Shown here piece after piece: positions 3,483 through 63,365 of a DNA stretch of 64,000 bases. Position numbers and translations under genes: made by a program. Each line of letters starts with the position of its first letter. Positions within the stretch are counted from its first letter, which is position 1. Origin of the DNA: Macrostomum lignano. Lineage: Eukaryota. The notes beneath the pieces are model-generated. The model had not been told where the DNA came from and did no database searches. It saw nothing but the letters and a program-made list of their open reading frames with translations. The stretch spans positions 143,744 through 207,743 of the forward strand of contig NIVC01002065.1 in the NCBI GenBank assembly GCA_002269645.1, given 5' to 3'.

Positions 3483-3777
3483 TCACAGGTAAGTATTCTC
3501 TCCATTTGCATTTACTTTGTTTGCTTTCAACGGCGGGACTGTCACTCGCGCAATCGGCGACCTCGATTGCCATGCGGCCGATTCTGATTGGCTACCGGCG
3601 GCAAACTGCGGTGCCCTGCTTGGCTCGCTGCCGACGTTCGCTGACGCAGACTGGTAGCTGAATACTGGGTTGCGGGTGTGCAGCATCTGGTCGTGGCTCG
3701 CCTGGGCCACGTCACGCCAAATGTCTGTCGGCAGGGGTGCCCGCTGGTGATGATGCTGCATCAGCTGCTGGGCCAGA

Positions 3778-3817
<40 letters not shown>

Positions 3818-5273
3818 TTGGCGGCATCTCCGCACTCGCCAGGCTGTAGACGCTGCCAGTGCGATTGCCTCTGAAGCCTTGCTGCTGCTGTTGCTGCTGA
3901 TGGTTGCGGGACTCACCGGGCCGATCGAATGTGCTATCTCGGACAGACGAACGGCGGACAATGCCGGACTTTCTGGTGCCCCCGCTGTCGCTGCTGTTGT
4001 TGTTGAAGCCGAACGCCTTGCTCAGACTGGCCGTCATTCGTTTCCAACTGTCGCCGAACCGTTTTGAGCGACTCTTCTGTCGGTAGCGATCGTCGTAAGC
4101 CTTCTCCATCTGCTCCTGCAGCTGTTCCTCTGTCTGTGGCCTGTCGTAGGCGAAGATCGGCTCCTCCCACTGCTCCTGATAAGGCTCGCGGACAACCGGC
4201 GGGCCGCCGCCTCGCCTGTATCGAGCGTTTGGAGGAGCTGGGGCGGGGCCCTTGAAGCGCCTAGGCTGGAGCGGACTCCGGTAGTGCCCGTTACCAACGC
4301 CAACTGAGCTCATTTCCAACTCGGAAGAGAATCGCGTCAATTGGCGCGGCGGCTGCTCCGCTGCCGGTGTGGCTGACTCATCCTCCGAATAGTCTGGCTC
4401 GAGCAGGCTGCCTTCCATGAAGTCTGTCGGTGCCTGAAGCGGATGTTGGCCAAGCAGTTGTTGACGAATCTCTGCGATGAGTTTTTTCTTCTCAGCATCG
4501 CCGATTTTGGCTCCGGAGACGGCCCCCTCTGCTGATGCGATCGCTTGCTGCTGCTGCGATGGGCTTGACGAGTGGCTCAGCAAGTCCCGGAGAATCTCCT
4601 GCTTTATTTCCTCCTTCAGTGTTTCAGTTGAGTCCGCTTTCGACAGACCTCTACGCAATGTGTCGTCTCGCTCCTCCAACTCCTCTGTAACAGTTGGTAG
4701 CTCCTGCTTGCTCGGGTCATACAATCTACCTTCGTTTGGGTCGACGTCAACTACCCTGTTCTTCTCCTTCTTTTCTGCCAGCGCGAATACATATTCTCGC
4801 ATGCGGGACACCCTGCTGTCTTCCATCGGCTCAGCAGCTGCATCTTTCTCGCTGTTTAATCCGCCATCTACCGCAGACGGCGGCGCTGGTGCCGGTGGCT
4901 TTTGCGTGCGGGCAGGCCGTCGCGCCTGACCGTTGGCCTGCAGCGATTCCGCTACAGCCTGTCGCTGCAGGCCTCCGTTGAGGTTGTTCACTTGCTGCGA
5001 AAGACGCGTCAAGCCACCGCCGGTTGCTGCAGACTGGCTGTGTGTTTCGCCACCGCCGGCACTGCTACGCAAAATCGAATGATTAAACCGCAGTGCGTCC
5101 TCTGTCTGGTCGCGGAATACGACGTTACGCCGATTTTTCTCATCGTTCAGATGACCGCCGCCACCCGCCGCATTTCGTAGTATTGGACGCGGAGTGCTCG
5201 GCGCGCTGGGCCCTACGTCTGTCGAGGCCGGATCGGCTGTTCCGTCCGGAGAACCGCTCTGTTCGTTACCCAT
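3483..5273 (-). CDS. Intronless ~596-aa low-complexity/disordered protein with polyQ tracts, N-terminal MGNEQS and C-terminal ENTYL; function unknown
   Basis: Long GC-rich ORF with gene-like codon use; first ATG at 5273; no recognisable globular domain. Confidence 0.75.
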
Positions 5274-6116
5274 CCTGAGCTGCTGCACGAAAACTGCAGC
5301 CTAGTGCTGGATCCTTCGGCTGGCCCTGCTTGTACCTTTTAGTTTCTCAATTCTTTTGCCGATTTCGCCGAGTGAACCTATGCTGCTGAACGAGTGCGCG
5401 GCGCTGCGCCTATAATTTTCTCTTTCTTATACACGCCTCAAAATACTTCGGCTTTCCTCCAACGAAAGAGGCGTAGGTGGAAAGAGAGTCGGGGTTGGCC
5501 TGACCTAAAAATATATCATTACACATACCCAGTTGGCCTCCAGCTGCTTGCTTAGGCCGAAAGCAAGCGAGTATTCAGAATATTTAACTACCATCTACCC
5601 TCGGAGCTTAAACTTTGGGCAAGCCTTGGTCATATAGCTGCGCTCTGAGTCTATTGTTCTTTATCTGTGCGCAAACCTCAATTGCATTGCTCTTGCAGCA
5701 TTCTATTCATCAAAATTGTGAGACTTGAGCCCCCACCCCCCGAGCATCTGCCTGGGGAGGGTTACATTGTCTTGGCAGAAATTGTGGCATTCATGAGTAA
5801 CCCATACTTTCTTTTCTGTAAAAAGTTGCAGCCTGTCGACGAAGAAAGAGATCGAACAATATAGCACTAGCAGCACTTGTGCACTTACGAGGTATACCCC
5901 GAATGGATAGGCTTTTGAGAACAAGTGCATTTTGGTTTGATGGTTTGATTGCTTGAACTTGTCTTTTGAAAAAAGAGCTACTAAATATGTTAACACGTAT
6001 GTAAGAGCGCTACAAGTTCAAGTTGTTATACACTCGTATAATCTATTATTGCTTTAAAATGTTTCCTTCTTGACGATGTAGAAAATCTGTGGGAAACATG
6101 TATTGCTCTTGACAGT

Positions 6117-8580: not shown

Positions 8581-11500
8581 CTTTTAACTCCCTTTAACTC
8601 CCTACCATGAATATCTTCTTCAATGCTCCTCTTCTGGATATTAATATCAATTAATAAAATTGTGGGCTTTTAAGAAGTGTTCGCCTATCTGTGAATATCG
8701 TAAATCGCTTGCAACATTCTCAGAGCCACCCAGCCACCCTTCTCCCGAGCCAGAGAGAGGTACAATGTCATCATTCAGCGTCGACTTGAGGCCAGTGGCA
8801 GTTAAAGCGATTCTGAAGTACAGTGTTACACTGACAGCTCAATGAGGCATGGTCTCTCAGGCTTCACGGAGCAATGCGTCCTCATCAAGGGAGAGCTACT
8901 CCCAGCACACTGGACTTAACTCCAGTGTTTTTAGAGCGAGCTGTTTGCCATCAGCTCCTGTGCGGCAGAGCTGCACCGAAGGTAGCTCAGCGGTCGGGAT
9001 TTTTTTTCACTCCGACAGCCAAGCAGTCCTACGGGCCCTTGAAATAAATTTGAGAAAACTTTGAAAGAACCTAATTAAGTTCCGTACCGGTATAGGCAAA
9101 GTAAGGGTAAGCATAGGGTAAGGGCATTGAGTATTTTCTATGTACACTGTATAGTCGTTGATGGAATATATCTATAAATTTACAATACACATAGTAATTG
9201 AATTAAACTGTACTTTGGCCAGATCTGTAGATAGTGATACACTGTACACCAACATGTAAGCTGCAGTGTGCAATACTGTATGCTAAAAAGTACTTGCTTT
9301 TGCCTGATTAAAAAAACATTATTGTATATTGGCAATTGGCAAAATTAGTTATCAAAATAATTTTCTTCGTTCTTAGAATAGCATAAAGAATATAAGACAC
9401 CTGTATATATAATTGCTGTTTTTGCTACTGACCTTCCAGCTGTATGTACTATACTAGTGCCGTTTGTTCTACCTTCTGAAATTGATCCTATAACTGTCAC
9501 CAAATGTTGTCACAGGTCTCTTTGTCCTTGTCCTGAGAAATCCTCTTCGCTATCACCAAATTTATCGGGTTTCTTCTTCTAATACTTAATTCATGTACTT
9601 CAGTAGTATTTCACATATAGCCGCTAGCGTATTACAGCACTGATTTAGGCACGTCCTAGGCTCCCCACTAATTTTGTGCACCCTCCTTTCCCTGTGATTT
9701 CTGCGCCCCGTGATGACTCATGCTTATCGTCCACACCCTCCTCCGCTCACCAACCCCACCTCCTTTTTTCGAAATCATTCATTCGTGTGACAGTTTTATA
9801 ACCCCCAAACTCTCGAAGCTTTTTCTTGCCTGTTGCGTAATCCCCCATCATAAATCATTCTTCTCCGCTGCACCTTCACCCCAATGTCTCGTCCAATAAC
9901 AGCGCGGCTGACGGGTCACTTCATCAGGTTGCTTGGTAACGGGAGGTCAAGGGCAAGTCACGGCCTTCAATATCACGCATTACGCTTACGTGATCACATG
10001 ACGCATGATCTCAGGGCTATCAATAAGAGCTCGTTTCGAGTTCTTAGCGCCAACTTTCTGAACTTCCTGACCGTAGTCAACTGCCCTTCCTTTCCACGTT
10101 TAGCTATTACCATTCCGCTTTTCCTTCCCTTTCGACAAGGACCTTTAACAATCGTTTAAAGGACCTTTCGGAGCTTTAACAATCGTTCGGAGCCCCTTCA
10201 CCCTGACCTGAGCGGGCAAACCGGTACCCCTCCCGAACCCCGAACCCGGTACCAAAGCCCGACCCCAAACAGCCCACATTAACCAAATAATCATAGCAGT
10301 AATAAAACTCCTAAATAAATCCCCGTAGGATATGTGAATGCACCACGAGAAGAGTTTCGAAAAAGTCTATAACAAATTTTATGCTTAGAATGGTTTTTAA
10401 AAACGCTGCATTAAAACAATATTGGCGAAAGTTTAAAATGCAGTAATTTCTAAGAAAGAATGAAGCTATTTATAAAAACGTATATTTAAGCGCGTAGAAT
10501 TATACACTGTCGTAAAATTACATACAATATGAAAATACAGTAATACAGTAACAGAGAAAAACAGGGCTTTTGTAGATAATCTCTTTGACATTGATTCTAC
10601 CTTTTATTTTCGCACAGACAGAAGGCGGATGTTTAAGTTTTTAACCTATCATCACATCACATCATGAAGACTCAGCCTAAATAGCTGGCATTGACAGTAG
10701 CAGTAGGCCCTACAAGCTATATTTATACACAGGAATCAAAGTGGCTGACTCGCTTGTTAATAAGCAAACACACAATAGATAAAAAGGCAAACAGCAAGTT
10801 TGGCTAGCAAAATTCTTGCTATCAAGCCTTGGCTGCTAAACTTTGTTACTTTACTTTAGCTAGCAACTGTTAGCAGATCTCCTGCTTGCAAATCTTGTAC
10901 TTCCACTGGTTAACTAGATAATATATCTGCATTACGTGTATTTTAATATTACCTGAGCTTGAACCAAGGCTAAATAATATAGCATTCATTTATGTACAAC
11001 TTCAGTACTATAGGCCCTACCATTTTATATCCAACTTTGAGTCTTGTTCAAAAGAAACAAGCAGAACTTCAATTCAAACAATTAAAGCAATCTTAGCACT
11101 TATAGAAATTCAATTCAAATAAAGTACTTTTACAGGGTTTTTGTGCCAAATTTGTGCCCTTGCCATATTTTTTCTAAATCCAAATGGTATAAATTACTTT
11201 AATTAAGGCAATTGGTCCCACTTTGGCATATTTATTTTCAATTTGGCAATCCTCATTTTGAGTTTTCAGTTCTAGACATTAAAAAACATTGTTTTATTTT
11301 ATACAAACTAGGATTTTAAACCTGCAGCAGTGCAGTCCAATACCTAGAACTATTTTTGCATATATTCTATAATCTAAAGCCATATTTAAGAAACCTATTA
11401 ATAATAGGCCTAATAGTTAAAAAAGAATTAAAGAAAAATTGGAGTAAACTTGCGTTAAATTAAAATTTGAGGCCAGTATTGATCTTATTTATTAGGGTTA

Positions 11501-26079: not shown

Positions 26080-26903
26080 TCAGCCGGTGCAGGCCGTGTG
26101 ATTAACTGTTCCAATCACTTCAATCTTCACGCGGCCGCCCATGCCCGGCGCTCCGCCCACTCCGCCGCGCGCTCCTCGCGATAGATTCGGCGCCGCGTAG
26201 CTGCCGCCGCCGCCTCCGCCACGAGGTTCTATGCCGTCCACTCCTCCGCCGCTGTAGCCGCCTCCGCCTCCGCCGCCTCCATTTTGAGAGCCTAGCTTGC
26301 CACCTCCGCCGCCGCCTCCGCCGTAGCCGCCGTTGGCAGGCTTTCCAACTCCGCCGCTCCATCCGCCTGTCCGGGACCGTCCGTCTAGACCGGAATTTGG
26401 ACCACCGAATCGCCATCCGTCCGATAGCCAGCCGGCTCCACCACCGCCAAGACCGTGGTTGTTGTTGGTGCTGACGCTGGTTGGTTGCGGCGCGCCCTGG
26501 CCGCCGACGCCGCCGTAACCGACACCGGTAGCGTCGCTAACCGACTGAGTGCCGTTCTCACTGTCTGTCGCGTTCCCGCCGTTGGTCATTTGGGCAGCGC
26601 CGCCACCTCCACCAGCGGCCAGCAGTAGTACGGGCGTATCAGTCGCGTTTTTATACACAAAGCTACCGCCTCCGCCTCCGCCGCCGTTGTCAACAGTACT
26701 TTGGTCGGCGCCGCGTCGGCCGACGACGATGGTCAAATTGTCGGTCTCGCTAAGCGTGAATGCCGCCTCTTTATAGGCGCCAAGACCGCCAGTTCGGCTT
26801 AACTGACCGCCGCCATGGGCGCCCCAGGCGCGGATGCGGTAGCAACCGGCGCCAAGGACTGGCGTGTAGTACATAGGCGTTCCCATGTGGCTCGGCGTGT
26901 CAT
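26080..26903 (-). CDS. Last exon of nested antisense gene: glycine-rich domain of the ALK/LTK extracellular GR type
   Basis: YRIRAWGAHGG..GGLGAYKEAAFTL..LTIVVGRRG..GGGGGGGSFV..LLAAGGGGG..GGYSGG..GGGGGSY; acceptor TTTTCCCTCAG|, phase 1. Confidence 0.8.
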
Positions 26904-27647
26904 CTGAGGGAAAAAGATAATTGTAAACATTTCGACTGGCTTTGTTGCACTAAATTAGAAAGTACACTACCATTGAAGGCTTCCAAATGGGCTTCCAATA
27001 GTGACAGTTAAAATAGATATACATCGAATCCACTGATCAGCATTTGCGCTCAAATGTTTCATATTACAAATCGATTTGAAATCCTTTAATTGGCTTCATC
27101 AGTCAGAAATTATACAATTAGAGTGTGTCATCCTGTTCACCTATGGAACAAATGTTCGGACCAATGTTGGAAACATTATAAGGACAAATAAAGCAACATT
27201 TTCAGATGGTTAAGCTGATAAGCGTTTAAGCTAGCTCGTATATAGTAATCACTATGCCATTATTTCGGGCAGAAATCCTTACCTGACGCTTGCGGTAACT
27301 TTTTAAAAGCTTATTTTCTCCTCTATGCTTTTTAGTGCAAGCTAAACCACACCAAAGAAGAATTTTATACCTTGCTAGATATCTTCCGTCACTGTAGCTA
27401 GGCAAACAATGAGTTGTTTAAATAATAATCCTAACTACACAATTACAACCTGCTTAGTATCAGATTGTTAATATGCTGCGAATAAAAGCTTCTTGGTAAA
27501 TCAAACATCATTTGTTTGTAGAGCTTCAGCTAGAGAGATGGTGAGAGTAAGAAACAAATTATCCATAGTAGAGAGTTGCTACCTCCTCGTGAAAGTCTAC
27601 TGCTCCTGGTAGAAGAATCGATGAAAGCTACTACTCGGGCCTCTCAC

Positions 27648-49010: not shown

Positions 49011-49856
49011 TGATGTGTTCCTTGTTACCCGACCGACTTTCGGTAATCAAAGAACAATCACTTCTAGCTCTGTAGCTAGGCAACCCAGTAAGTCAATGAA
49101 GGTATTTATTACCTTGAGTACTGATCAGTTGATCTCTTCCTGAGCGTTGTTCTCGCTAGTAGATCTTAGGGCGCCTCTCGTCGGTGTCTGGTCCGGTCCT
49201 CTTTGTCCTCTCTGACTTCTGGCCGGCCGGTATCTGTAGTTCGGACCAATCGGAAGCTTCGAATTAACAATGGGATCCCTGCGCCAAACTGCGGTATAGT
49301 ATAAGCCTACTCCTTCTAGCAGTGCCTCTTCGCACTCTAGGAATAGCTCCGGAGACCACTGATAGCCTTCTAAGATCTATCAGGGGCAGTCCTTCTGGAG
49401 ACTGCAACCAGTGGAGTCTAAACAGACTCTCTAAAGTTGTGATTATTGAATGGCAATAGGCAAAAAGAAAGTGAAAAATTGTGCAAAGTGAAGCTGTAAG
49501 GCAGTCAAACATTCAGGATTCAGCAAAGTTAAATAGTTATACTGCTTTTTTTCTTGGAAGATCCGAATCGATTCTGGTTCTGGAATTGGTTAATGTGAAA
49601 AGCTCCAATGAATCGTTATCGTAATTACGTTTTGATCGTAGGTCCACGAGTTTAAAAATTTATTAAAACACGCACGTGCAGCTAGAAATTGTTTGTAAGC
49701 GTGCATGCCCGCTGCTGCACTACACTTACACTGTAAGTAGACCTTAGACAGGGTGTAGGTCGAAGACGAATAGACGATAAATAAGTTACATAGCCTAATC
49801 ACGCATTCATAATTATTTGTTTTTATCCTTATTCCATTCCATATCGGCATATGACA
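49011..49856 (-). mobile_element. Older LTR related to the intact gypsy element, inverted orientation; right boundary inferred
   Basis: 49011-49430 is the reverse complement homologue of the LTR 3' half (...GGAACACATCA end). The candidate TG start at 49856 gives ~846 bp. The U3 part is not alignable by eye. Confidence 0.7.
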
Positions 49857-51638
49857 TTGTTTCAATTGATTTGATTTTGATCCTTTGAGTTTGACTAGGC
49901 ACTAGGCAGGGCCTATAACTTTGGGAGTCATCTATTTTTATAGGCTATTATTATTAATTTGCCCAATAAAATGTGTATCTCTATGTCTTGATCTGCTTTT
50001 ATTAATTTGTCTATTATAAAACTTTTAAATGAAATCTAAAAAGAAAAATGCTAGGATAGGCCTAGGCACTAGGCAGGCAGGTGCAGGCCTTGCTTGTTTA
50101 ATTTATATTTAGTTTTAAATAAGGCCTTTTTTTATTAAACTAATAAATTATTTAAAGACAATGGCTATATCTAAAATTCTACATTTAAGAATTAAGGGCT
50201 AAGAGGGGCATGGTATCTGCCTATGGCATGGGCTATGATATGATATGTCAACAAATCTGAATACATATTAATTGATATTAGACTTAGGCGTTAGGGGTTA
50301 GATAGGATTGAAGTCATCAATTAGGATTGGAAATATTTTTCTCAGGTTTGGGATCAGGATTAGGAATCAGAGTCAGGTTTTTTTGTTTATTTTATAGGCC
50401 TAGCTTTGTTACTTTTAACATAACTTTTTTATTTGTAAGATAAAGATATTTTCTATTTGTTATTTTAATTCTTTTTTTGTTTCTTTTTTGCTACTTTTGA
50501 GGTAGGGGATTTCAAAATAGATTGCTACACGCCAATACTGCAGCCCTATAGTCAGGAGCATGGCACTCTTGTGCCAAAACAAATCCAATCAAAAAAGTTC
50601 GCTTGTACCATGTGCCAGAACTATTCCTATCAAAAAGCTTGCTTGTACTATGCTGGAACTTTTAAAAAATTACAAAAAATGCAAAAACCGGTATTTTCCA
50701 TTGGAAAAATTCTAGTAAAACTTGTATTTGAATCTGTTTAATAGAAAATGCAATGTTAACATATATTAATTAAAAATCATCAATATACAACAAACAAAAG
50801 TGCTAGGCCCCATAAAAAGAAATTACATGCTAATTTTCTGTTTGTAAAAATATTGTCTTGCTGAAAGTTTTTGGCTTGCAATAATTTGCACCATTTTTTG
50901 TCTTGCGTAATATAGTATTGCACTGAATTTTTCCCCTTGTCTACTGTTGTGCCAGAATGTGCCAGAATGGGTGATGCATGTCCAACCCCCTTTTGCACCA
51001 GAATTTTCCATGAAAAGACCATTTTCCTTACTATGGCTATAGCTATTGGGTTGGCAATTTGTCAATATTTGAATTTACAGACTTAAAGCCAGAAAACTTA
51101 AAGCAATATATATGTTTGAATCTGTATTGTTTATTCCATCATCTGCTATAGGTTCTCAATTCCAGGGGAAGGATAATAAAAATATTGTAGCCAAGAGGTC
51201 ATTCTTCTATATGTATATAGTATACCATTTTTTGAATTTGCCAAAATGTTTTAATACTTTGCCAAAATATTACTTTTGTGATTCACTGAAACATTAATTT
51301 GCCAAAACATCATATAGCCACTATAGTTCATAGATCCATATAGAGTTGAACAGAGTTGAACAAATACTATTAAGATCAGATCAAAAGATAAAACATGATA
51401 GAATAGATATAAAGTTTTGTAACCAATGAAGATTATTATAATGAGTATAAGTTAAAACAGAATGCATTCAAGTAATCACTAATTCTATAAATTTAGAATC
51501 AAAAGACCTATTTCCAATTTTCATTGTTAAGGTTAGGATCCCAAGAATATGGGATCAGGATTCAAATCCTATTTGACCTCTAGTATATATTTGGTAGTAT
51601 CATATACATTAATCTGATACTATAAATATACTAGCTAC

Positions 51639-52502
51639 TGTAGAGTGTTCTACCTCCCGTTAAAAAAGGAAAAAAGAAGATAATCGTATAATACTACTAT
51701 AAGTAAGTAAGTACACGCATGTGCGCCTAAGCTTTGAATGAATCACGCTACCAGAAAAAGATGTTACCAGAATAATACGCCATGAGCCATTTTCCCCTTT
51801 TAGCGCAACACGTGAATTGTCATGATACTATTTTGGATCAAAAACTTGTCTATAAATACAAGCGATCTGAAGCGGTACCGGAGCCATTCTCCCCACGGAA
51901 GAGGAGCGCTCCGAAGAGGAAGCCTTAGGAGGACTTCCTGATCTACCAAGTCAATCGAGACTCGGTCGAGTTGTTGCGGTAAGCCTTCCTTATTTGCGCC
52001 CGTTGTGTTAGAGACGTCTCGCTCAAGTCTATTGAGACTTGAGTCTAATTGAGTCTGTTGAGACTCTTGAGTCTGTTTAGACTCCATTGGTTGCAGTCTC
52101 CAGAAGGACTGCCCCTGATAGATCTTAGAGGACTATCAGTGGTTTCCGGAGCTATACCTAGAGTGCATAGAGGCACTGCTAGAAGAAGGAGGCTTAATTT
52201 AGACCGCAGTTTGGCGCAGGGTACCCATTGTTGCTACGAGGCCTCTGATTGGTCCTGACGGAAGATACCGGCCGGAAGAACTTATCGGAAGTACAAGAGG
52301 AACCAGGACCAGAGCAACTGAAGAATCAAGGCGCCTGATCTACGAGATCTACTGACAAGTTCCTAGCGAGAACTACTCAAGAAATTCAAATCCGGATTAA
52401 AGGTAATTGAATACCTTCGTTTGACTTACTGGGTTGCCTAGCTGTTGAGCTAGAAGTGATTGTTCCTTGATTATCGAAAGTCGGGTAATAAGGAACACAT
52501 CA
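51639..52502 (+). repeat. 5' LTR (864 bp), TATAAATA at 51851-51858
   Basis: Starts TGTAGAG, ends ACATCA; matches 61388-62250 except one visible 1-bp indel. Confidence 0.96.
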
Positions 52503-52504
52503 AT

Positions 52505-52515
52505 TGGTGATCTCG
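52505..52515 (+). promoter_or_regulatory. Primer binding site TGGTGATCTCG, compatible with tRNA-Trp
   Basis: 2 nt after the LTR; pairs with a typical tRNA-Trp 3' end (CGGGGUCACCA) allowing two G:U pairs. Confidence 0.6.
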
Positions 52516-53216
52516 CCCTCTCGGCACTACTCAAACCTTGAGCAATAGCCTGGCCAAGCTATTGTAAAGTGACGACAGAGCGACTTCATTAATTTTGCGC
52601 GCACGTGTTAGAGTTAACACTTTTTAAGTCCGTTACGTTTTGAAACTCGAGTAAAATTTGGTGTACAGGTTTGAGCACCTGTCAAATTTGAGTACAGTTT
52701 GAGCACGCGTGTTAAAATTTTGTTTTGACGAGCTCGAGCAAGTGTGAGTTTAAAACAAAACCGAAATTAACTTCGTCGGTACACTGAAAACAAACCAAAA
52801 ATAAAAAAATCGTCGACGCAAACAAACAAAAAATAACTGAAACATTTTGCCGGCACAAAAACTAAAACAAAACCGAAATTAATTGAAACTTCGTGGAGAG
52901 CAGAGTTAATTGACAAAAGAGAGAGAGTCAAAGAAGAGAAGAAAGACTTTGCAAAGCAAGAAGACAAGTCCACTTCAACTTGAAGATACACTTTGCGGGA
53001 CGCCGCATAAGTGCGAAATCAGCAAGCGAACAGAACAAGTTCATTTGAGGACAACCAGTGGCAGCAAGCCACACCGCATCCGAGGCCAGCGAATAACAAA
53101 TCGACACCACAAGGCAATTCGTTACAGTCGAGGTTTATTCCGAGGCAAACACCACACTGGACGATCCGTTACAAATCGATCCAGATCTTGAACTACCGTT
53201 CTACCCTATCAACAAC

Positions 53217-54923
53217 ATGGCGCGGCGCAATCCAACGGTACACAGAGACATCAAAGAAACGGTCGGTACTTTCTCGATGGAGAAAGATTTTAACACATTT
53301 GTCGACCATTTTGACCTGGTATGTAGGGAATACAACCTACAAAATCCAGAGAAGGCACAGCTGCTGCCACCTCTTCTCCAAGGTACTGCGCGAGAAATTT
53401 ACGGCAAGCTGGATGCGGCAACACAGCAAAATTATCCAGCACTAATCATTCAACTGCGCGCGCATTTCAACCGTTGCGGCACAAACAGATCAGTGCTGCT
53501 GCACAAGTTGCATAACAGAAGGATGCAAGCAACAGAATCCTTCCTCGCCTTTGTGGACGATATCCGCCAGATAATTAAGGCACTGCATCAGCCACCGCTG
53601 CAAGCTGCGGACCAACCACCACTGGGAGCGGCAGAATTGGCCGCCAGAGAAAGACAACGATTGATGGATCGTGAACAAAACCTCATCCTGCACGTAATAA
53701 ACAACGCACAGCCGTCACTTCGGGATAGACTTTTGCGTGAAAATATCGAAACCGAAGAAGACCTTTTGCGTTGCGGAATGCAATGGGAAGCCAGTGCCCC
53801 ATTAATGACGACAGGCAACAATGAAGTGCAGAAACTGACGCAGCAACTAAACAAGTTAATGCAGCACCAGACAGCTGCTATCGCCGAACAAAAAAGACGA
53901 AATGAACAAGCCTCAGCCAGATGTTACTACTGCGGACAAGAAGGACATTATCAGATTAATTGTCCTCATTGGTCAACAAGATACGACAAGCCGCGACAGA
54001 TATTCAACAATCAGAAGCCGCAGAAACCATGGCAGCAATATCAAAATCGCCAACAACAAGGCATAAGACGCTTCGGAAATGATAGACGCTTCGGAAATAA
54101 TGACCGCTCCGGAAATGATGGCCGCTTCGGAAACGAAGGCCGCTTCAGAAGTAATGGCTACAGGCCACGCAACGTCAGATACACACAAAGACAGCCGACG
54201 CAAGCAATGCCACGATACGCGAATGCCATCACGTACACACCGGAAAATGAACAGCAAGAACAGCAAGTGTTCACAATTGACGACTTGGAAATGGACTTCA
54301 CAGTCCCGGAACTTGACATCAGCTTGATCGAAAAGAAGACGACGCACGAGGACAACACTGACAACACAGAAGAGACGAATGAAACCGAAATGATCAAATT
54401 AAAAGAGACCACCGGAGACAGCAGAGAAAACAGGAAGAAAGTAAATCACAAGACAAGGGAGGAGGCGGAGAGCGACATCGGCAACGAAGAAAAGATGAAA
54501 ACCGGCGAAGAAAACAACTATGAATCGACAACAGTGGATGACGACAAAACGAGCATGAAAGACAAAGAAATGAAAGAAGAAGAAGAATGTAGAAGTTACG
54601 GCAACGACCACGACTGCGAGGTGCGTGATGACACGAACGACTACCAAGCCGAAAGAGGAATGCAGGAAGAACCGAGAGCGGAGAATCTAAGTTCCGACAG
54701 CGATCAAGGCTACGAAATACAATGGAAAGATGAAGAAATGGAAAAAGAACAGGTGAAAGAAAAGCCGAGTTCCGACAGCGACGAATGCTACGAGATCCGA
54801 TACAAACGAAATGGTGAAGCCTATATTCAAACGGTCGACTACAAGACAGAGAAAAGATACCAAACGCAATGGAGTGAAACAACGGAAACATCGGAAGAAG
54901 CGCAGACGAAGATAATGAAATAA
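53217..54923 (+). CDS. gag: Gag (capsid-like, CCHC knuckle, long acidic C-terminal extension)
   Basis: F..FVDHFDL..LLQGTAREIY..LRAHF..LHNRRMQATESFLAFVDDI; CYYCGQEGHYQINC at ~53922-53963. Confidence 0.92.
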   Translation: MARRNPTVHRDIKETVGTFSMEKDFNTFVDHFDLVCREYNLQNPEKAQLLPPLLQGTAREIYGKLDAATQQNYPALIIQLRAHFNRCGTNRSVLLHKLHNRRMQATESFLAFVDDIRQIIKALHQPPLQAADQPPLGAAELAARERQRLMDREQNLILHVINNAQPSLRDRLLRENIETEEDLLRCGMQWEASAPLMTTGNNEVQKLTQQLNKLMQHQTAAIAEQKRRNEQASARCYYCGQEGHYQINCPHWSTRYDKPRQIFNNQKPQKPWQQYQNRQQQGIRRFGNDRRFGNNDRSGNDGRFGNEGRFRSNGYRPRNVRYTQRQPTQAMPRYANAITYTPENEQQEQQVFTIDDLEMDFTVPELDISLIEKKTTHEDNTDNTEETNETEMIKLKETTGDSRENRKKVNHKTREEAESDIGNEEKMKTGEENNYESTTVDDDKTSMKDKEMKEEEECRSYGNDHDCEVRDDTNDYQAERGMQEEPRAENLSSDSDQGYEIQWKDEEMEKEQVKEKPSSDSDECYEIRYKRNGEAYIQTVDYKTEKRYQTQWSETTETSEEAQTKIMK

Positions 54924-54967
54924 CCAAAAAGCAAAGCGAATCAGAAGCCTTCCGCCTGGATCAGCCA

Positions 54968-57900
54968 ATGGAACAACCGAAAGAATATGATGCGGACATG
55001 GAAGATAACGAATGGCGATCGCAGCCAATGCCAGCAAGGACAACGGCAAAATCCAAGAAGTGGAAAAACTGGCTATTCTGGATCATCGTGATACTACTGA
55101 TAGCAGTAGTCGCCAAAGCAACGGCAACGGAAAAGCCAATGATTTGTCCAACGGATGCGCATATCCAACCGATGATCTACAAGATACCAACCGACATCAA
55201 ATGCAGTTACTTCAAGACAAACCAGACAAAACCAAAGAAGATTACACTCGATCTCTACAAGGCTAACATCAAGAAGCATCGACAACACGGGATAGTATGC
55301 TTCAGAGACAAGCACCTGGTGGAAAAAGTTTGGCGCGGACAATGGAACCGGATCCGATTTAAACAACATGAGCTACATGTGTCGCACGCGGAATGCCTAC
55401 AATGGAATCAAACACTATTTTCAAAGGATGGTGAACTGGAACCAGATGAGAAGGTCGGCAACGCACAGCTGTTCAGAACAAAGAATTCAGCCAACGGTCG
55501 ATATATTCACTTCTTCGGAAAATGGAAAGAATATATGGCACGCAACAGCTACTTGATCAGAAATATTCCATTCTACTACAATCCGTACGAGAAAATGGAA
55601 TCGTTACAGCTGCAACTAAGCGAATGTCGATACAGTGAAGGATGGTGTCCAACGCCGATTCTACGGAAGGAAGAACTACACAGTCTACCACTGAGTCCAA
55701 CATATCATCAAGACTATCGATGGCAGATTGAGCACAGAGCACAATCACACTATGAGGAACCGTACAAATCACGACAATACTTCTTCGCGTGGGAAGTTGA
55801 GCCGGAAATTGACTGCAAGCTTCAAAAGTATCACACAGTTGAAGGAGGACTACTGTCAAATACGTTTTTGGCAAAGTCAGGAGACTTGGCACTGACGTTT
55901 CAAAAGAAACCAGTCGAGCAAAAACTGAAATGCAAGGATACAGACAAGACACTATTCATCTCGGAACAAGAGATACCAGTCTACGTAAAGGATGAAGACA
56001 AACAAACCTTCTTGGCAATCATCAATGGAACGTATCAGCAACAAGAAAAACAGAATAGAAGACGACGTGACATCGAACGTCCCAAACTGGTGTCAAACCG
56101 GCTGTTGTCAGCAAAGATAACGGCTTTGGATCACAATCTACACAACCAGTTAAACCACTTGCATCGAACACTGGTCCAGCTAACTTGCAAAATGCACGCA
56201 ATCAACTTAAATTATGCCAGACAAAACTACTATGTCAACCCTACGATGACTTTTCGTAAAATCACCGGAATGACGAACGTTTTGGCAGTTCCAATATACG
56301 AGCATCTGTTGATATACAAGTGCACGCCGATACAGCACTTTAACATCTTGCCGTCAAACACGTCAACAACCTGCTACGATAAGCCAAGGATTGAAGCGTT
56401 CTACGAAGGAAAACGAATTCAGGGATTCTTGGACACGGTACACAACATCATCGTTGGCACCGCAATACCGAGACCTTGCACCACGGCAGTAAACTACTAT
56501 CAACTGGACAATGCACTACACGTCATCAAAACAACTGGAACGACAGCAAACGTCACAGAACCGGAAGTAATCGTCGACGAAAACTACGACATGGAGGATT
56601 TGAAAATCCGATTCAACAGAACGAAGTATACGCCATTCGCCGATATCCAACTTGACGAGATAACACCAGGATGGACGATCAACGACTTCTTGCAAGCGTT
56701 CATCACCCAACGCAAGATGATTCACCAGCTGTTCACAAGAAAGGACAAAGGAACCGGGACAGGAAGATTTCCCGTCCTTGTTTCAATGGACAGCGCCATC
56801 AAATCATTTTGGACAAATAGCTTCTGGGAGCTGCTCAATGGAAGAGGCAGTCTCTATCAAGGATTCATCTTCTACGGTGCTTGCATTGTGTGGATTGTCA
56901 CGGCAATCTTCATCATTTCATCGATCGTACGGTGCTTCAGTCAAACTTGTCCAAGAGCTAAGAAGACAGTGAATGCCATAATGCAAAGAACGACAACGGA
57001 AAGCGACAACAGTTTAGAACTAACAGAAACTGCACATTGTGAGGTTCAAGGGCAACCGACACTAGCAACGCGGCTATATCCATCGATTCCGACAACACCA
57101 ACGGCACCAAGGATACAACCACCCAACTATCAAGCAGAACAGCACGAGCCAAAATGGCCGGAAAACTACGTCTGTACGCTACACGCCGAGATTGGCAAAG
57201 CAATGGCTCAGGTCATTGTCAACAACTTGCCATGTCGAGCACTACTGGATTCAGGCAGCTCGATCACAGTCATCTCGCAACAATTATGCAACAAGCTACG
57301 ACTCGCGGTACGACCAGCAGCAATCGCAGTTGCAGGAGCAGGAGGACATTCACTCAACATCCTAGGAAAAGCAGATATCGACTTGAAAATTGCTAATAAA
57401 CAGCTGACGGTCCCGACGTACATCATCGACAGACTACCAAACCAAGACGTCATCGTTGGAATCGACACGTTCAAGCAGCTTCAACTACCATTGACCTTCG
57501 ACTTCAACAAGCAAACGTTTAGGATCGACACGGTGGAGCAACCGCTGATCAACCAGATTCGAGTACTACCGAAAGTAACTCTGCAGCAAGATGTCATTAT
57601 CCAGCCTGAAAGCGCATGCTGGGTCAGAGCGAAAACGACCAGCGCGGCAGATGAAGCAATGATATTTGATCCACACAGGAGAGTCACGGCAAAACATCAA
57701 ATCATGATGCCTACGGCACTAGTGCTGGTTGCAAAGGATAAGCAACTGCCAGTACAAATCTTCAACCCGAACACAGAAACGGTTCATCTACGACAAGGAA
57801 TGTGCATCGGTCATCTCAACACCCAAGCATCGGTTATGCTGATTGAACAAGCGACTCCACGACTAACAGAGGAAGAATTTCAAAAGAAGATCAATTTGGA

Positions 57901-60712
57901 TGACAGCCCGATTACGGAACAGCAAAAGAGGAAAGTTCGACAGCTGTTGTGGAAGTACAACGAAGCCTTCTGCCATCATGATTACGACATCGGACGAGCC
58001 AAGGACATCAAACAGGAAATCAAACTTCTGCCGCACACGGAACCAATTCAGTGCAAGCCGTACCCGATCGCCAAGCATCTGCAACAACACTTTGACGAAA
58101 TCATCGATAAAATGCTAAAGCACGGCATCATCAGCAAAGCTATTTCGGCTTACTCCTCACCGTGCCTACTGGTACAGAAGAAGGAGACAAACGAAAGACG
58201 ACTCGTATGCGACTTCAGACTGTTGAACAAGTACATACCGACGGATCAGCAAAGCCTACCGAAGATCTCCGAACTACTAGCAAAGCTCAACACGGCAAAA
58301 TTGTTCACGGTGTTCGACCTACGTCATGGATTTTGGCAAATTGAAATCGAGAAAGAGTCACGACAGTACACGGCTTTCAAAACCTACAATGGACAAGTAT
58401 ACGAGTACAATCGATCGCCGATGGGACTTAGCAACAGCCCAGCAACGATGAGTCGACTAACAGCATACATGCTAGCAGGATGCACGAACCTGCTGCACTA
58501 TGTCGACGACATTTTAGCCTACGGAGAGGATTTCGAGCGACTCTACGAAGCTACGGAGAAGGCCCTAGCGCTCATTCAACGCCAAGGTCTGAAGCTACAA
58601 CCAACTAAATGCAAATTCTTCCGAGACAACGTGCGTTACCTGGGACATCAGGTGACAGCCAAAGGAATCTCACCGGACCCAGACAACGTGGAAAAGGTGA
58701 AGAAGTTTCCTACGCCAACCAGTATAACGAAGGTCCAATCATTCCTTGGACTTGCGCAATACTTCAGGAAGTTCTTACCTAACTTCGCAAAGACAGCAAA
58801 GCCACTGTACGACCTGCTCAAGTTCGACAAATGGAAGCAAGACAACTGGACACAGAGACAACAGGAAAGTTTCGACGAAATCAAACGACAGCTGACATCA
58901 GACGCACTGCTACAGCATCCGGACTTCGACAAGCCCTTCATCATCGAGACAGACGCCTCAGGAACGGGACTCGGAGCAGTCCTACTACAGGAAACCGAGG
59001 ACAAGAAGGAACGACCTATTGCTTACGTCAGTCGAGCACTCAAACCAAATGAGACAAAGTGGTCAGCTACGGAACGAGAGCTACTAGGAGTCTTGTTCGC
59101 CCTGCGACAGTTTCATTACTACATCTATGGTTCTCCAATACAGACGATAGTACGCACGGATCATGCACCATTGACCTACGTCGTAACTACAAAAGGACAG
59201 ACCAACAACCGACTCATCAGAATGACACTCAAGATCCAGGATTACAACTACAAACTCGTCTACAAACCAGGAATTACCAACAAAGCCGCGGACGCCCTGT
59301 CAAGAGCCTATGAAGTCAACGCCATTCATCCAATCCCTAACATCAAGGAGTTGGTGGATGAAACCGAGCGCGACAACTTCTACCAAGCGGTTAAAGACGA
59401 CGACAAGAACATCAAACTCAGTCCCATGGAACGAAAATTCCTACGCAAGCAACGACAACACCTAACAATCAATAAGTCACGGCTCTACTGGATGAGCGAC
59501 AATAAACCCAAGATCTACATACCATATTCGTTTCGGCAAGCAATTCTCAACGAGCTACACGACAACCCACTCGCTGGACACCTGTCGGCAGCAAAGACCA
59601 TCGCGAGAGTGGAACAATACTACTTTTGGCCAACTATGTACGGCGACATCAAGCAGTATTGCAACAACTGCCATTCATGTGCTGCATCAAAGACAGGACG
59701 ACGACAGAAACCGCAGCTACAGTCCATTCCGAAGTCGACTACAATGGACTGTCTAAGCATCGACATCACCGGACCGCTACCACCGAGCTGTCTCCAGGGC
59801 ATCGCCTACACCTACATTCTAACCGCCTTGGATATCTTCTCGAAGTTTGCTATCGCCATACCGATACCGGACATCACAGCTCAGACAGTGGCAATGAGTT
59901 TCTTCAACGAAATCATTTGCAAGTACGGCACGCCGAAGAACCTCACATCGGACAACGGATCGCAGTTTACATCGCAACTGTTTCAGCAAGTCGTAAGGAT
60001 TCTCAACATTACGCAGATCTACACATCGACCTACAATCCGAAGGCAAACATGGTTGAACGGTTTCACCGCAACCTGCACGAGATGATTACACATTTCGCG
60101 CACCAACAGCCGGAAGACTGGATCATCTACCTGCAATCTGTAACAATGGCCTACAACAGCGCTATTCATCGATCAACGGACAATACGCCATTCTTCCTAA
60201 TGTTTGGACGAGACTTCCAACCGCCGAATCTGCTCGCACAGCAATTGCTACCATCGCAGTACGTGGAAGTACCGACTTCCATTCAGAAATTCGTCACGCA
60301 ACTACACCTCGCATGGAAGATCGCCAAGCACAACATTGACAACCAGGTGGCTCTGACCACCGGCAACGACGCGAGATCGACAACCCTGACGGCCGGCGAC
60401 ATCGTCTACCTACACTACCCGCCACAGCAGACGCATAAACATGCACAGAAGTACAAAGGACCCTATCGAGTGGTCCAACTAACGTCACCAACAACGGCAC
60501 GCCTGGCTAATGTACAAGATCCACATCAGCACCAGTTCTACGTACACATTCATCGACTAAAGAAGATCAACACTGACACAGCGACGTTTCTACCGACATT
60601 AGACAACGCTGATCGCACGCGTTCAACGAACCGCCACATCGCGACGAAGCACGAGGAGACTCAAACGACAGATGTGAGCCAGCCACATGGCTACAACCTA
60701 CGACCACGCTAG
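54968..60712 (+). CDS. pol: Env-Pol fusion polyprotein, 1914 aa: Env-like glycoprotein then protease, RT, RNase H, integrase
   Basis: LLDSGS (57245), LRHGFWQI, YVDD (58499-58510), ETDASGTGLGAVL, HHCC + DITGP..DNGSQF..ERFHRNL, GPY; N-terminal ~660 aa has two hydrophobic segments and 12 ectodomain Cys. Confidence 0.95.
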   Translation: MEQPKEYDADMEDNEWRSQPMPARTTAKSKKWKNWLFWIIVILLIAVVAKATATEKPMICPTDAHIQPMIYKIPTDIKCSYFKTNQTKPKKITLDLYKANIKKHRQHGIVCFRDKHLVEKVWRGQWNRIRFKQHELHVSHAECLQWNQTLFSKDGELEPDEKVGNAQLFRTKNSANGRYIHFFGKWKEYMARNSYLIRNIPFYYNPYEKMESLQLQLSECRYSEGWCPTPILRKEELHSLPLSPTYHQDYRWQIEHRAQSHYEEPYKSRQYFFAWEVEPEIDCKLQKYHTVEGGLLSNTFLAKSGDLALTFQKKPVEQKLKCKDTDKTLFISEQEIPVYVKDEDKQTFLAIINGTYQQQEKQNRRRRDIERPKLVSNRLLSAKITALDHNLHNQLNHLHRTLVQLTCKMHAINLNYARQNYYVNPTMTFRKITGMTNVLAVPIYEHLLIYKCTPIQHFNILPSNTSTTCYDKPRIEAFYEGKRIQGFLDTVHNIIVGTAIPRPCTTAVNYYQLDNALHVIKTTGTTANVTEPEVIVDENYDMEDLKIRFNRTKYTPFADIQLDEITPGWTINDFLQAFITQRKMIHQLFTRKDKGTGTGRFPVLVSMDSAIKSFWTNSFWELLNGRGSLYQGFIFYGACIVWIVTAIFIISSIVRCFSQTCPRAKKTVNAIMQRTTTESDNSLELTETAHCEVQGQPTLATRLYPSIPTTPTAPRIQPPNYQAEQHEPKWPENYVCTLHAEIGKAMAQVIVNNLPCRALLDSGSSITVISQQLCNKLRLAVRPAAIAVAGAGGHSLNILGKADIDLKIANKQLTVPTYIIDRLPNQDVIVGIDTFKQLQLPLTFDFNKQTFRIDTVEQPLINQIRVLPKVTLQQDVIIQPESACWVRAKTTSAADEAMIFDPHRRVTAKHQIMMPTALVLVAKDKQLPVQIFNPNTETVHLRQGMCIGHLNTQASVMLIEQATPRLTEEEFQKKINLDDSPITEQQKRKVRQLLWKYNEAFCHHDYDIGRAKDIKQEIKLLPHTEPIQCKPYPIAKHLQQHFDEIIDKMLKHGIISKAISAYSSPCLLVQKKETNERRLVCDFRLLNKYIPTDQQSLPKISELLAKLNTAKLFTVFDLRHGFWQIEIEKESRQYTAFKTYNGQVYEYNRSPMGLSNSPATMSRLTAYMLAGCTNLLHYVDDILAYGEDFERLYEATEKALALIQRQGLKLQPTKCKFFRDNVRYLGHQVTAKGISPDPDNVEKVKKFPTPTSITKVQSFLGLAQYFRKFLPNFAKTAKPLYDLLKFDKWKQDNWTQRQQESFDEIKRQLTSDALLQHPDFDKPFIIETDASGTGLGAVLLQETEDKKERPIAYVSRALKPNETKWSATERELLGVLFALRQFHYYIYGSPIQTIVRTDHAPLTYVVTTKGQTNNRLIRMTLKIQDYNYKLVYKPGITNKAADALSRAYEVNAIHPIPNIKELVDETERDNFYQAVKDDDKNIKLSPMERKFLRKQRQHLTINKSRLYWMSDNKPKIYIPYSFRQAILNELHDNPLAGHLSAAKTIARVEQYYFWPTMYGDIKQYCNNCHSCAASKTGRRQKPQLQSIPKSTTMDCLSIDITGPLPPSCLQGIAYTYILTALDIFSKFAIAIPIPDITAQTVAMSFFNEIICKYGTPKNLTSDNGSQFTSQLFQQVVRILNITQIYTSTYNPKANMVERFHRNLHEMITHFAHQQPEDWIIYLQSVTMAYNSAIHRSTDNTPFFLMFGRDFQPPNLLAQQLLPSQYVEVPTSIQKFVTQLHLAWKIAKHNIDNQVALTTGNDARSTTLTAGDIVYLHYPPQQTHKHAQKYKGPYRVVQLTSPTTARLANVQDPHQHQFYVHIHRLKKINTDTATFLPTLDNADRTRSTNRHIATKHEETQTTDVSQPHGYNLRPR
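55070..56940 (+). other. env: Env-like (gB/class III fusogen-like) segment of the polyprotein
   Basis: Signal anchor WLFWIIVILLIAVVAKA, furin RRRR (56057-56068), six N-glycosylation sequons, TM GFIFYGACIVWIVTAIFIISSIV. Confidence 0.85.
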
Positions 60713-60832
60713 AGTTTAGAGAACAACCCCGTGTAGTGACCGGGATAAAGAATAGCACTACAGCTTCGCAAGCTTGTCGTAAAAGGCGACTAATCCGAGC
60801 GACACAAAGACAGCGACAAATTGACGACAATT

Positions 60833-61207
60833 ATGGGCAACGCACTGTCAAAACAGGCGCCCCAGCCTCAGCAGCTATATGACTGCCCGATATGTTTAAC
60901 TGATGACTTGGCTGTCAAGCCACCGACTATTTGCATCAACGAACATAAAGTTTGCGGACAATGTTTAAGCGATTCACATTATATTCAGCCATGGCAGAAT
61001 TGTCCCCTCTGTAGAGATAGTTTGCGACAATGTGCCTATTGTTATTCTTGGCGCACGTTTCAATATTGTAACCACCAACATTTTATTTGCATGCACTGTT
61101 TGAAGCAAACCGCTAGTAGGGGCGTTATAGGATGCCCCTTATGTAATAGTATGCCGCGAGACTGCACGTTTCGAAAGTGGTGTCGGATCAAACCTGATGC
61201 CACTTGA
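60833..61207 (+). CDS. Accessory ORF3: 124-aa double RING-finger protein with N-myristoylation motif
   Basis: MGNALSK; C-x2-C-x12-C-x3-H-x2-C-x2-C-x12-C-x2-C followed by C-x2-C-x8-C-x3-H-x2-C-x2-C-x11-C-x2-C. Confidence 0.82.
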   Translation: MGNALSKQAPQPQQLYDCPICLTDDLAVKPPTICINEHKVCGQCLSDSHYIQPWQNCPLCRDSLRQCAYCYSWRTFQYCNHQHFICMHCLKQTASRGVIGCPLCNSMPRDCTFRKWCRIKPDAT

Positions 61208-61372
61208 TGTCTACGCGATATTCGAGTTTTGACCGCAATATGTACTGAAAAGTTTTTAGAGTTTTGACCAAACCCTCGCTTCACTAGACGCGCACAAAAT
61301 CAATTGTTTATTTCCTATATTAACTGATCACCACAGAATTTTATTGTTAAAACTCGGGACGAGTTTTTTCGT

Positions 61373-61387
61373 AAAAAAGGGAGATTT
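61373..61387 (+). promoter_or_regulatory. Polypurine tract
   Basis: AAAAAAGGGAGA-TTT immediately before the 3' LTR, preceded by CTCGGGACGAGTTTTTT. Confidence 0.8.
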
Positions 61388-62250
61388 TGTAGAGTGTTCT
61401 ACCTCCCGTTAAAAAAGGAAAAAAGAAGATAATCGTATAATACTACTATAAGTAAGTAAGTACACGCATGTGCGCCTAAGCTTTGAATGAATCACGCTAC
61501 CAGAAAAAGATGTTACCAGAATAATACGCCATGAGCCATTTTCCCCTTTTAGCGCAACACGTGAATTGTCATGATACTATTTTGGATCAAAAACTTGTCT
61601 ATAAATACAAGCGATCTGAAGCGGTACCGGAGCCATTCTCCCCACGGAAGAGGAGCGCTCCGAAGAGGAAGCCTTAGGAGGACTTCCTGATCTACCAAGT
61701 CAATCGAGACTCGGTCGAGTTGTTGCGGTAAGCCTTCCTTATTTGCGCCGTTGTGTTAGAGACGTCTCGCTCAAGTCTATTGAGACTTGAGTCTAATTGA
61801 GTCTGTTGAGACTCTTGAGTCTGTTTAGACTCCATTGGTTGCAGTCTCCAGAAGGACTGCCCCTGATAGATCTTAGAGGACTATCAGTGGTTTCCGGAGC
61901 TATACCTAGAGTGCATAGAGGCACTGCTAGAAGAAGGAGGCTTAATTTAGACCGCAGTTTGGCGCAGGGTACCCATTGTTGCTACGAGGCCTCTGATTGG
62001 TCCTGACGGAAGATACCGGCCGGAAGAACTTATCGGAAGTACAAGAGGAACCAGGACCAGAGCAACTGAAGAATCAAGGCGCCTGATCTACGAGATCTAC
62101 TGACAAGTTCCTAGCGAGAACTACTCAAGAAATTCAAATCCGGATTAAAGGTAATTGAATACCTTCGTTTGACTTACTGGGTTGCCTAGCTGTTGAGCTA
62201 GAAGTGATTGTTCCTTGATTATCGAAAGTCGGGTAATAAGGAACACATCA
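61388..62250 (+). repeat. 3' LTR (863 bp)
   Basis: Near-identical to the 5' LTR. Confidence 0.96.
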
Positions 62251-63365
62251 CTACTAGCTAGGGTTAGGCCCACAATATAATATGAGCATAAGAAAGTTAA
62301 GCCATTATCCCAAGGATTTTGATACCTTACCTTTCTAAGGCCCTAGAGTCCTAGGTATAGCTACTATAGATTTTCAAATGGATTTTACACTATATAGCCT
62401 AAGACCTAAATAGGCCCATTGATGTAACCGCCCTTGTCGCCAGTCCACTCCTATTGAGAGACGAACGCTTGGCTAGAGGGGGCAATGACCGTAGGCTGCC
62501 TATGACCGGGCAATGACCTGACGGACCTCCAGCACCAGACTGTCCCGCCCACATGATTAGTAGCTTTGGTAGCGCTTCGTGACCAGAGGGCCAAGGACCC
62601 ACATGGACCCCACCTGTAGCCAAGGTGCAATAGTTGGTCACTCGGTCATGGTATGACGAGTGGCTGCCACCACTCTATGTGACCTGGTGCACCTGGATCT
62701 TGCTACCAGACCTCTTGAGGCTAGAGCCCCGCCTGGATTGGTTACCAGGGGATTTAGGCTAACAGGGGAGACGCATGCAGCCGAGTACAGGGACTCTGCT
62801 TGGGGCATGATCGGGAACTCTGGGCTCAATCCTGGAGGATTTCTCAGCAGGGGATCCTTGTGGCTGTGAGCGAGGCTGACTTGCGACTTTGATTACTAAG
62901 AGGTAGTATGAGGTGAACATGTACTGTCTCTAGTTTTAGATTGCTCAGGGCAAAGAGGCGCGTCAGCATGGGGTTGCAACCTTCCTACTGCCATTCTGTG
63001 CCAAGACTCGCTAATCCTCTACTGCACGCACGCACGGCCCCGCAGCCCGCACTCACAGGCGAGCTTTGCACGGGAGAGGCCATTAGCTTACCCAAACTTC
63101 TCTATGCTTTGCCACCGGGAGAAAGGCTTAGCAAGCCATGAGTGAAATGATGGTGAAAGAGTGAATAATGATGAGGTTAGTTAATAGTTAATAATTAGGC
63201 CCTTAGGCAAATAATCAGGCAATTAGGCGGCTTCACTATTGAGTAAAAATACAGCAAAAGGTACGGTATCACAACTGGCTCAGCTCTCTAATCAGACCAT
63301 GGAAAAATAGGCAAACTCCGGATAAGCAAAGGCAATTAGAGCACAAATCAGTAACAGGAACTTAC

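Follow-up and report, generated by a model that had tools for sequence, protein, structure and literature searches.

A young env-bearing Ty3/gypsy element of Macrostomum lignano from a family with a single Gag-Env-Pol reading frame

A retroelement was examined in a 64,000-nt stretch of Macrostomum lignano DNA, here called the window, and all coordinates given are positions in it. We conclude, at a probability of roughly 0.8, that it is a young env-bearing Ty3/gypsy insertion of a non-canonical type, GAG-ENV-POL, most likely the published Mlig_errantivirus_2, whose family carries capsid, fusogen and enzymes in one frame of ~2,500 aa that would be translated as a membrane-spanning polyprotein. 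In the window copy this frame is broken between gag and env, and the break appears to be peculiar to that copy.

Anatomy of the element and its envelope segment

The features of the element, with comparisons to L032, a copy from a divergent subfamily, are as follows.

51635..51638, +, left 4-bp target-site duplication CTAC, from the flanks
51639..52502, +, 5' LTR of 864 nt, TG...CA; 1 indel and 0 substitutions against the 3' LTR
52505..52516, +, primer-binding site (PBS), a TGG-starting 12-mer 2 nt past the LTR; its reverse complement is the PBS_revComp entry of Mlig_errantivirus_2
53217..54923, +, gag: capsid region, CCHC knuckle at 53922-53969 (zf-CCHC above the Pfam cutoff), then a fast-evolving acidic spacer; ended prematurely in the window copy by the frame break near 54.9 kb
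55073..55129, +, first transmembrane segment and putative internal signal, with a basic stretch before it (KD 2.41; counterpart in L032)
55130..56860, +, predicted gB-like class III fusogen ectodomain with 12 Cys and 6 sequons (profile, fold search, purifying selection)
56057..56068, +, furin-type site RRRR, a predicted cleavage site; RHKR at the corresponding place in L032
56861..56917, +, second transmembrane segment, putative stop-transfer (hydropathy)
56918..57208, +, predicted cytosolic tail and protease linker, of low conservation (36% aa identity to L032)
57209..57478, +, aspartic protease, LLDSG (Pfam)
58175..59245, +, reverse transcriptase (YVDD) and RNase H (Pfam)
59519..60712, +, integrase: HHCC zinc domain, rve core and C-terminal tail, up to the stop (Pfam)
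60833..61207, +, accessory ORF of 124 aa with two tandem RING-like fingers (Pfam match below cutoff)
61373..61384, +, polypurine tract
61388..62250, +, 3' LTR of 863 nt
62251..62254, +, right target-site duplication CTAC

The structural hallmarks of Ty3/gypsy elements are present, namely direct TG...CA LTRs whose starts lie 9,749 nt apart, a target-site duplication (TSD), a PBS and a polypurine tract, and the Pfam matches place the Pol domains in the Ty3/gypsy order of protease (PR), reverse transcriptase (RT), RNase H (RH) and integrase (IN). Since the LTRs differ by one indel only, the insertion is young. One contig of run X3 contains an empty-site joint, 51628-62252, in which the flanks abut with no element between them; a polymorphic insertion, or a homeologous site that lacks it, may be the reason. 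An antisense ORF of 95 aa lies within the LTR (51800-52087, minus strand), at the same place in the 3' LTR and also in the family copy L033. A heat-shock element in the LTR was considered but no perfect three-unit motif was present, and hence no link was made to the heat-induced families in the accessible part of PMC12801592. About 2.2 kb upstream of the element, at 49033-49429, there is an inverted fragment of a related LTR, ~87% identical. Elsewhere the window holds a host-like ORF at 26080-26949 (minus strand) with an ALK/LTK glycine-rich domain match just above cutoff, a low-complexity ORF of 605 aa at 3483-5300 (minus strand) that has no Pfam match and is probably a large host exon, and, between 2700 and 47000, many unrelated minisatellite arrays with units of a few to 95 nt.

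Downstream of gag, a stop-free frame runs from 54878 to 60712 and gives 1914 aa when counted from the ATG at 54968. A reading made earlier from the sequence only had described this ORF as two hydrophobic segments enclosing an ectodomain, followed by a linker and PR-RT-RH-IN, and frame, hydropathy and Pfam confirmed this description. Hydrophobic 19-mers were found at aa 36-54 (KD 2.41) and aa 632-650 (KD 2.43), and after the second of them a linker of ~100 aa leads to PR, RT, RH and IN, all above the Pfam cutoff. The segment of ~577 aa between the 19-mers has 12 Cys, 6 N-glycosylation sequons and RRRR at aa 364. It had been called a Cys-rich ectodomain of ~580 aa; the length stands but, with a Cys content of ~2%, the segment is conserved rather than rich in this residue. 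Basic residues lie on the Gag side of the first membrane segment and on the Pol side of the second.

The ectodomain gave a Pfam match to the Monjiviricetes fusion protein below cutoff (E 3.7e-5), and a single-sequence search against PDB sequences gave no match (best E 0.74). A profile built from 21 relatives matched Epstein–Barr virus (EBV) gB with an E of 5.5e-13; 19 of the 20 profile matches were herpes gB, and 13 of the 21 profiled relatives matched the Monjiviricetes fusion family. The structural model was moderate (monomer, pLDDT 71, pTM 0.40). When it was searched against the PDB, all 35 of the matches listed were herpes gB (best E 3.5e-20), with TM-scores of 0.33-0.38, and the best viral fold match was a nyavirus glycoprotein (E 1.7e-22). 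An F-type (baculovirus-like) env was not indicated, as only one of the 21 aligned relatives touched Baculo_F, and weakly. On profile and model evidence the ectodomain is a gB-like class III fusogen, and the Env identity proposed for this segment was borne out.

One frame from capsid to integrase

Comparison of its copies indicates that the family has a single Gag-Env-Pol ORF of ~2,500 aa and not Gag plus a separate Env-Pol. Two natural copies, L031 (2538 aa) and L032 (2503 aa), read as one ORF from capsid to integrase with both hydrophobic segments in each, and a genome search (72 of 264 candidates scored) gave 76 env matches, of which 12 fall within open frames 2370-2538 aa long. Frames were compared in the 29 best-scoring other copies. 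The knuckle was in frame with env in 19 of these and env in frame with PR in 20, all three sharing one frame in 15, so the in-frame env-pol fusion that had been noticed in the window recurs in its family. The knuckle was out of frame with env in 10 copies and env out of frame with PR in nine; seven of the nine env-PR breaks lie near 57.0 kb, where none of four sequencing runs has an indel. As the same breaks turn up in different subfamilies, with siblings that are free of them, we attribute the out-of-frame copies to probable decay or to indels of assembly. The acidic spacer between the nucleocapsid and the env signal (~54200-54900) is indel-rich in close subfamilies and mostly kept in frame.

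A continuous genomic ORF need not be translated mainly as such. Spliced RNAs for Gag only, or for Gag-Pol without env, might supply part of the protein with the full polyprotein a minor product, and we regard this as rather unlikely while taking it seriously. Gag is required for capsids in much larger amounts than enzyme, a demand that copia answers by splicing. Furthermore, RNAs of this kind probably exist, since the ORFs 3' of the integrase have to be expressed from a spliced or subgenomic transcript. Four contig sets showed no GT..AG joint within the element, although rare forms are lost from contigs. The point against this reading comes from the comparison with L032, in which the ectodomain has a pS of 0.74, near saturation. 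Both junctions have been kept open over this divergence even though the in-frame segments there have changed greatly, the spacer being 28% identical (dN 0.87) and the tail 36% identical (dN 0.72). A frame kept open across both junctions suggests that read-through translation matters.

The window copy itself gives the impression of a separate Gag ORF followed by an Env-Pol that has a start of its own or is reached through programmed -1 frameshifting, which would yield excess Gag. The gag and env-pol frames share 46 nt, the offset between them being -1 as is typical of gag-pol, and one other copy, L022, shares the window's state at the break. However, the remaining 28 of the 29 other copies have an indel relative to the window at 54861-54960, and at the same place the window is matched by none of the contig depth in four of four sequencing runs; as all copies of the family are pooled in these runs, they are not locus-specific. 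L022 belongs to another subfamily, and its siblings lack the window's break state. No canonical slippery heptamer was found in 54601-55100, and the divergent L032 is one ORF without a Met close before the first hydrophobic segment. A separate Gag is therefore very unlikely for the family. A further one-base indel, 5' of gag, separates the window from all four runs, and small frame breaks like that of the window recur across subfamilies, both of which point to assembly errors; the gag/env break is thus probably an error of assembly, with a real mutation at the locus the lesser possibility. Separate Gag and Env-Pol proteins, the latter with a basic N-terminus of its own, had been proposed from the window sequence. 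This part of the proposal does not hold, since with one continuous family frame the apparent basic N-terminus is the interior of a longer chain.

Env might also be a mere passenger, captured from a virus and kept open solely by the in-frame Pol downstream. In-frame position alone does select against stops and frameshifts, and Env fusion and particles are predictions from sequence for elements whose mechanism of transmission is stated as unknown in section 11 of PMC13524379, as far as that source was available. However, the ectodomain is 64% identical to that of L032 with a dN of 0.27, comparable to the values for PR (0.29) and IN (0.23) and unlike those of the flanking spacer and tail, and L032 retains the cysteines, the two hydrophobic segments and a furin-type site. 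Env-less copies are also absent among the RT matches checked (see below). Given that env evolves like PR and IN and unlike its in-frame neighbours, these comparisons indicate that it is under purifying selection as a protein, and little credence can be given to a passenger Env.

Distribution, relatives and published elements

The sequence-only reading had called for other copies with the same gene order. Among 71 close RT matches (150 of 3494 candidates scored), 63 are preceded by an env match no more than 3 kb to the 5' side, and no env match was seen 3' of any of them within 4.5 kb. Three of the eight lacking an env match were fetched, and env sequence was present before PR in all three, in one as the C-terminal part only. 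Thus env lies 5' of RT in 66 of the 71, the other five being outside the check. Copies without env, or with env out of frame, had been named as what would speak against the layout; no env-less copy was seen among these 66, but copies out of frame with PR do occur, as the nine described above demonstrate. Most of the stretch is contained in 20 sequencing runs from eight studies, with no RNA run listed among them; in two runs one contig spans the env transmembrane segment into the linker, and one reaches the protease. That a viral glycoprotein gene was inserted once, or misassembled, into an ordinary gypsy element would account for the oddity of the gene order and nothing further, and can be dismissed given the 76 env matches in the genome, the position of env 5' of RT with none seen 3', and the recurrence of the stretch, across the env-linker joint and as far as the protease, in sequencing runs.

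Relatives also occur beyond M. lignano. An exhaustive search gave 58 env relatives, of which the 18 longest were scanned for domains. Knuckle, env, PR and RT were found in this order in one protein in P0004, P0018, P0027, P0048, P0049 and P0064 (the last from the P0057 cluster), with IN completing the chain in P0004, and a protein of a Panagrolaimus nematode, P0019, combines env-PR-RT-IN in a single chain. False introns bridged in gene models may account for some of the long relatives, and P0002 is clearly chimeric. P0004, P0060 and P0061 represent a second, distant M. lignano family with 41% RT-RH identity, annotated as proteins of 2852-2859 aa. P0027, P0048 and P0023 each show two protease-like motifs per polyprotein. 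P0055, a BEL/Pao polyprotein, carries the same env family C-terminally and has a Pao protease, a domain for which the window element gave no Pfam match. In an RT tree of 11 rows without outgroups, from which P0011 and P0023 were left out as they lack the YxDD anchor, the window grouped with L032 and the second M. lignano family (support 100/99), and P0019, at 32% RT-RH identity to the window, took a separate branch. A word-indexed search of longer proteins gave one match among 2992 candidates. Over 38% of its extent, env is matched at 98% identity by a named M. lignano protein that runs on into Pol.

The gene order GAG-ENV-POL is already known and is not an architectural discovery. In the part available to us, Chary & Hayashi (PMC13524379, eLife RP108449) report gB-type env and this order in nematode, bryozoan and flatworm errantiviruses, state that the order is not monophyletic and that the ectodomains can be flanked by two membrane segments, and assign all of their elements to Ty3/gypsy by GyDB profiles. 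This is a prior description of the same clade and layout, and the possible novelty that the sequence-only reading had allowed for is withdrawn. The window ectodomain, flanked by two hydrophobic segments, fits the definition used in the accessible text (signal/TM or two TMs). Supplementary file 1 of that paper lists Platyhelminthes_Rhabditophora_Mlig_errantivirus_2 from Macrostomum lignano, of the ENV_HSV type and with 16 copies, its LTRs at 0-863 and 9727-10591 and its PBS at 865-877. As far as these entries go, this element and that of the window agree in PBS 12-mer, LTR length, LTR spacing, env type and host; the gag/env frame break is a feature of the window copy. The window family is probably Mlig_errantivirus_2, an identification made from the PBS, the LTR length and spacing and the 98% identical named protein rather than by direct alignment. 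In the passages searched, PMC13524379 speaks of the order of ORFs, and its main text does not mention fusion, a single ORF, a polyprotein, frameshifting, RING or accessory ORFs, though its figures may show more. A survey of M. lignano LTR families (PMC12801592) does not discuss env in its accessible part, and its supplements may list the present family. Nothing specific on polyprotein topology or RING accessory ORFs was found in the literature searched, a scope that left out most subscription journals, Repbase and GyDB.

Among better-known systems, the Drosophila errantiviruses gypsy, ZAM and Idefix resemble the window element in their Ty3/gypsy Pol order, possession of env and 4-bp TSD. They differ in having the order gag-pol-env and an F-type env, whereas the window family has a gB-type env internal to the polyprotein. 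Their env is made from a spliced mRNA. The nematode non-canonical ERVs (NERVs; Sacco et al. 2022, J Gen Virol, doi 10.1099/jgv.0.001739, as cited in the accessible part of PMC13524379) have env flipped ahead of pol. The present family differs from that clade in its flatworm host and in an RT branch separate from that of P0019. Nematode NERVs reportedly combine one uninterrupted gag-env-pro-pol frame with an env resembling that of Nyamiviridae and with additional 3' ORFs. If so, the continuous ORF is common to both groups, and the reported env type is consistent with the nyavirus fold match of the window Env and with P0019 from Panagrolaimus. BEL/Pao elements with a chuvirus-like gB glycoprotein (Dezordi 2020, again as cited in what was available of PMC13524379) have the same fusogen class, but there env is C-terminal and Pol is of the Belpaoviridae.

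Proposed expression, assembly and the RING cassette

In the polyproteins of flaviviruses and alphaviruses a cytosolic capsid is followed by an internal signal, a luminal glycoprotein and a stop-transfer segment, and in flaviviruses the enzymes come later in the same chain and are cut out by host and viral proteases. The likeness to the window family is one of working and not of homology; those viruses have a class II fusogen, whereas the window family has class III and is reverse-transcribing. By this precedent and the general rules for membrane proteins, and from hydropathy and flanking charge, the following scheme can be proposed. Gag would be made in the cytosol, and the first hydrophobic segment would act as an internal signal threading Env into the ER. 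Signal peptidase would free the N-terminus of Env, leaving Gag tethered by the first segment. The second segment would halt transfer so that PR-RT-RH-IN come out on the cytosolic side, attached to the tail of Env. Env would be luminal and glycosylated and would be cut in two by furin, and, as particles assemble at the membrane, the element's own protease would release the enzymes, the capsid and the nucleocapsid. By analogy with the Drosophila errantiviruses, Env would probably let particles pass between cells. L031 has a [VA]NAI-like motif at three junctions, one following the nucleocapsid, one following the second membrane segment and one where RH meets IN; only two of the three are kept in L032, and these candidate protease sites are a lead only.

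The membrane topology had been suggested from the window's Env-Pol ORF. It remains a sound inference and is now extended to include Gag. A 1:1 coupling of Env to the enzymes had been suggested with it; the in-frame env-pol agrees with this but the suggestion was incomplete. Since Gag is in the same polyprotein, the first segment would tether Gag as well, and Gag, Env and Pol would be made 1:1:1. An excess of capsid would then arise only through turnover or from another mRNA. Tf1 reportedly obtains its capsid excess through turnover of Pol.

Between integrase and 3' LTR the copies carry one to three RING ORFs, which vary in number and sequence by subfamily. The genome contains 145 matches (150 of 212 candidates scored). 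Three fetched 3' regions (L033, L034 and L035) hold arrays of two, three and two RING ORFs of 169-228 aa, and six of the seven array ORFs match RING profiles, one of them above cutoff. In a sister copy an accessory ORF of 222 aa is followed by a second RING ORF; the 124-aa ORF of the window is a shortened version, found identically at 11 places. Among family copies an env identity of 94-98% can accompany a 100% identical RING ORF, and the reverse. As RING identity does not track env identity, exchange or recombination between subfamilies is suggested by these sequences. No homologue was found among 12 candidates of 68-217 aa, and an Atlas search gave weak viral RING look-alikes only. The arenavirus Z protein carries a myristoylation motif (MG start). 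A role for the RING ORF as a myristoylated matrix protein like Z was rejected, the MG start being absent from divergent families. That the RING proteins are ubiquitin ligases serving counter-defence is a guess. More tentatively than the polyprotein itself, and as less likely than not, we suggest an enveloped particle built from one twice-membrane-spanning Gag-Env-Pol chain, in which the signal segment might serve as a matrix-like tether for Gag and clustering of Env might bring the proteases together, accompanied by a fast-changing RING cassette, expanded by gene duplication, whose products would be ubiquitin ligases antagonising host defence, for example Piwi factors; such an expression plan would be flavivirus-like in a reverse-transcribing element.

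The finding is thus a correction and a test case, in which capsid, fusogen and enzymes lie in one frame. An equimolar, membrane-tethered chain raises the question of how the capsid-to-enzyme ratio is set and how assembly proceeds in an LTR element, and the RING cassette may be an undescribed counter-defence module. The family is young and multicopy in a laboratory flatworm for which transgenesis is available (PMC12801592, accessible part), and these proposals are therefore testable.
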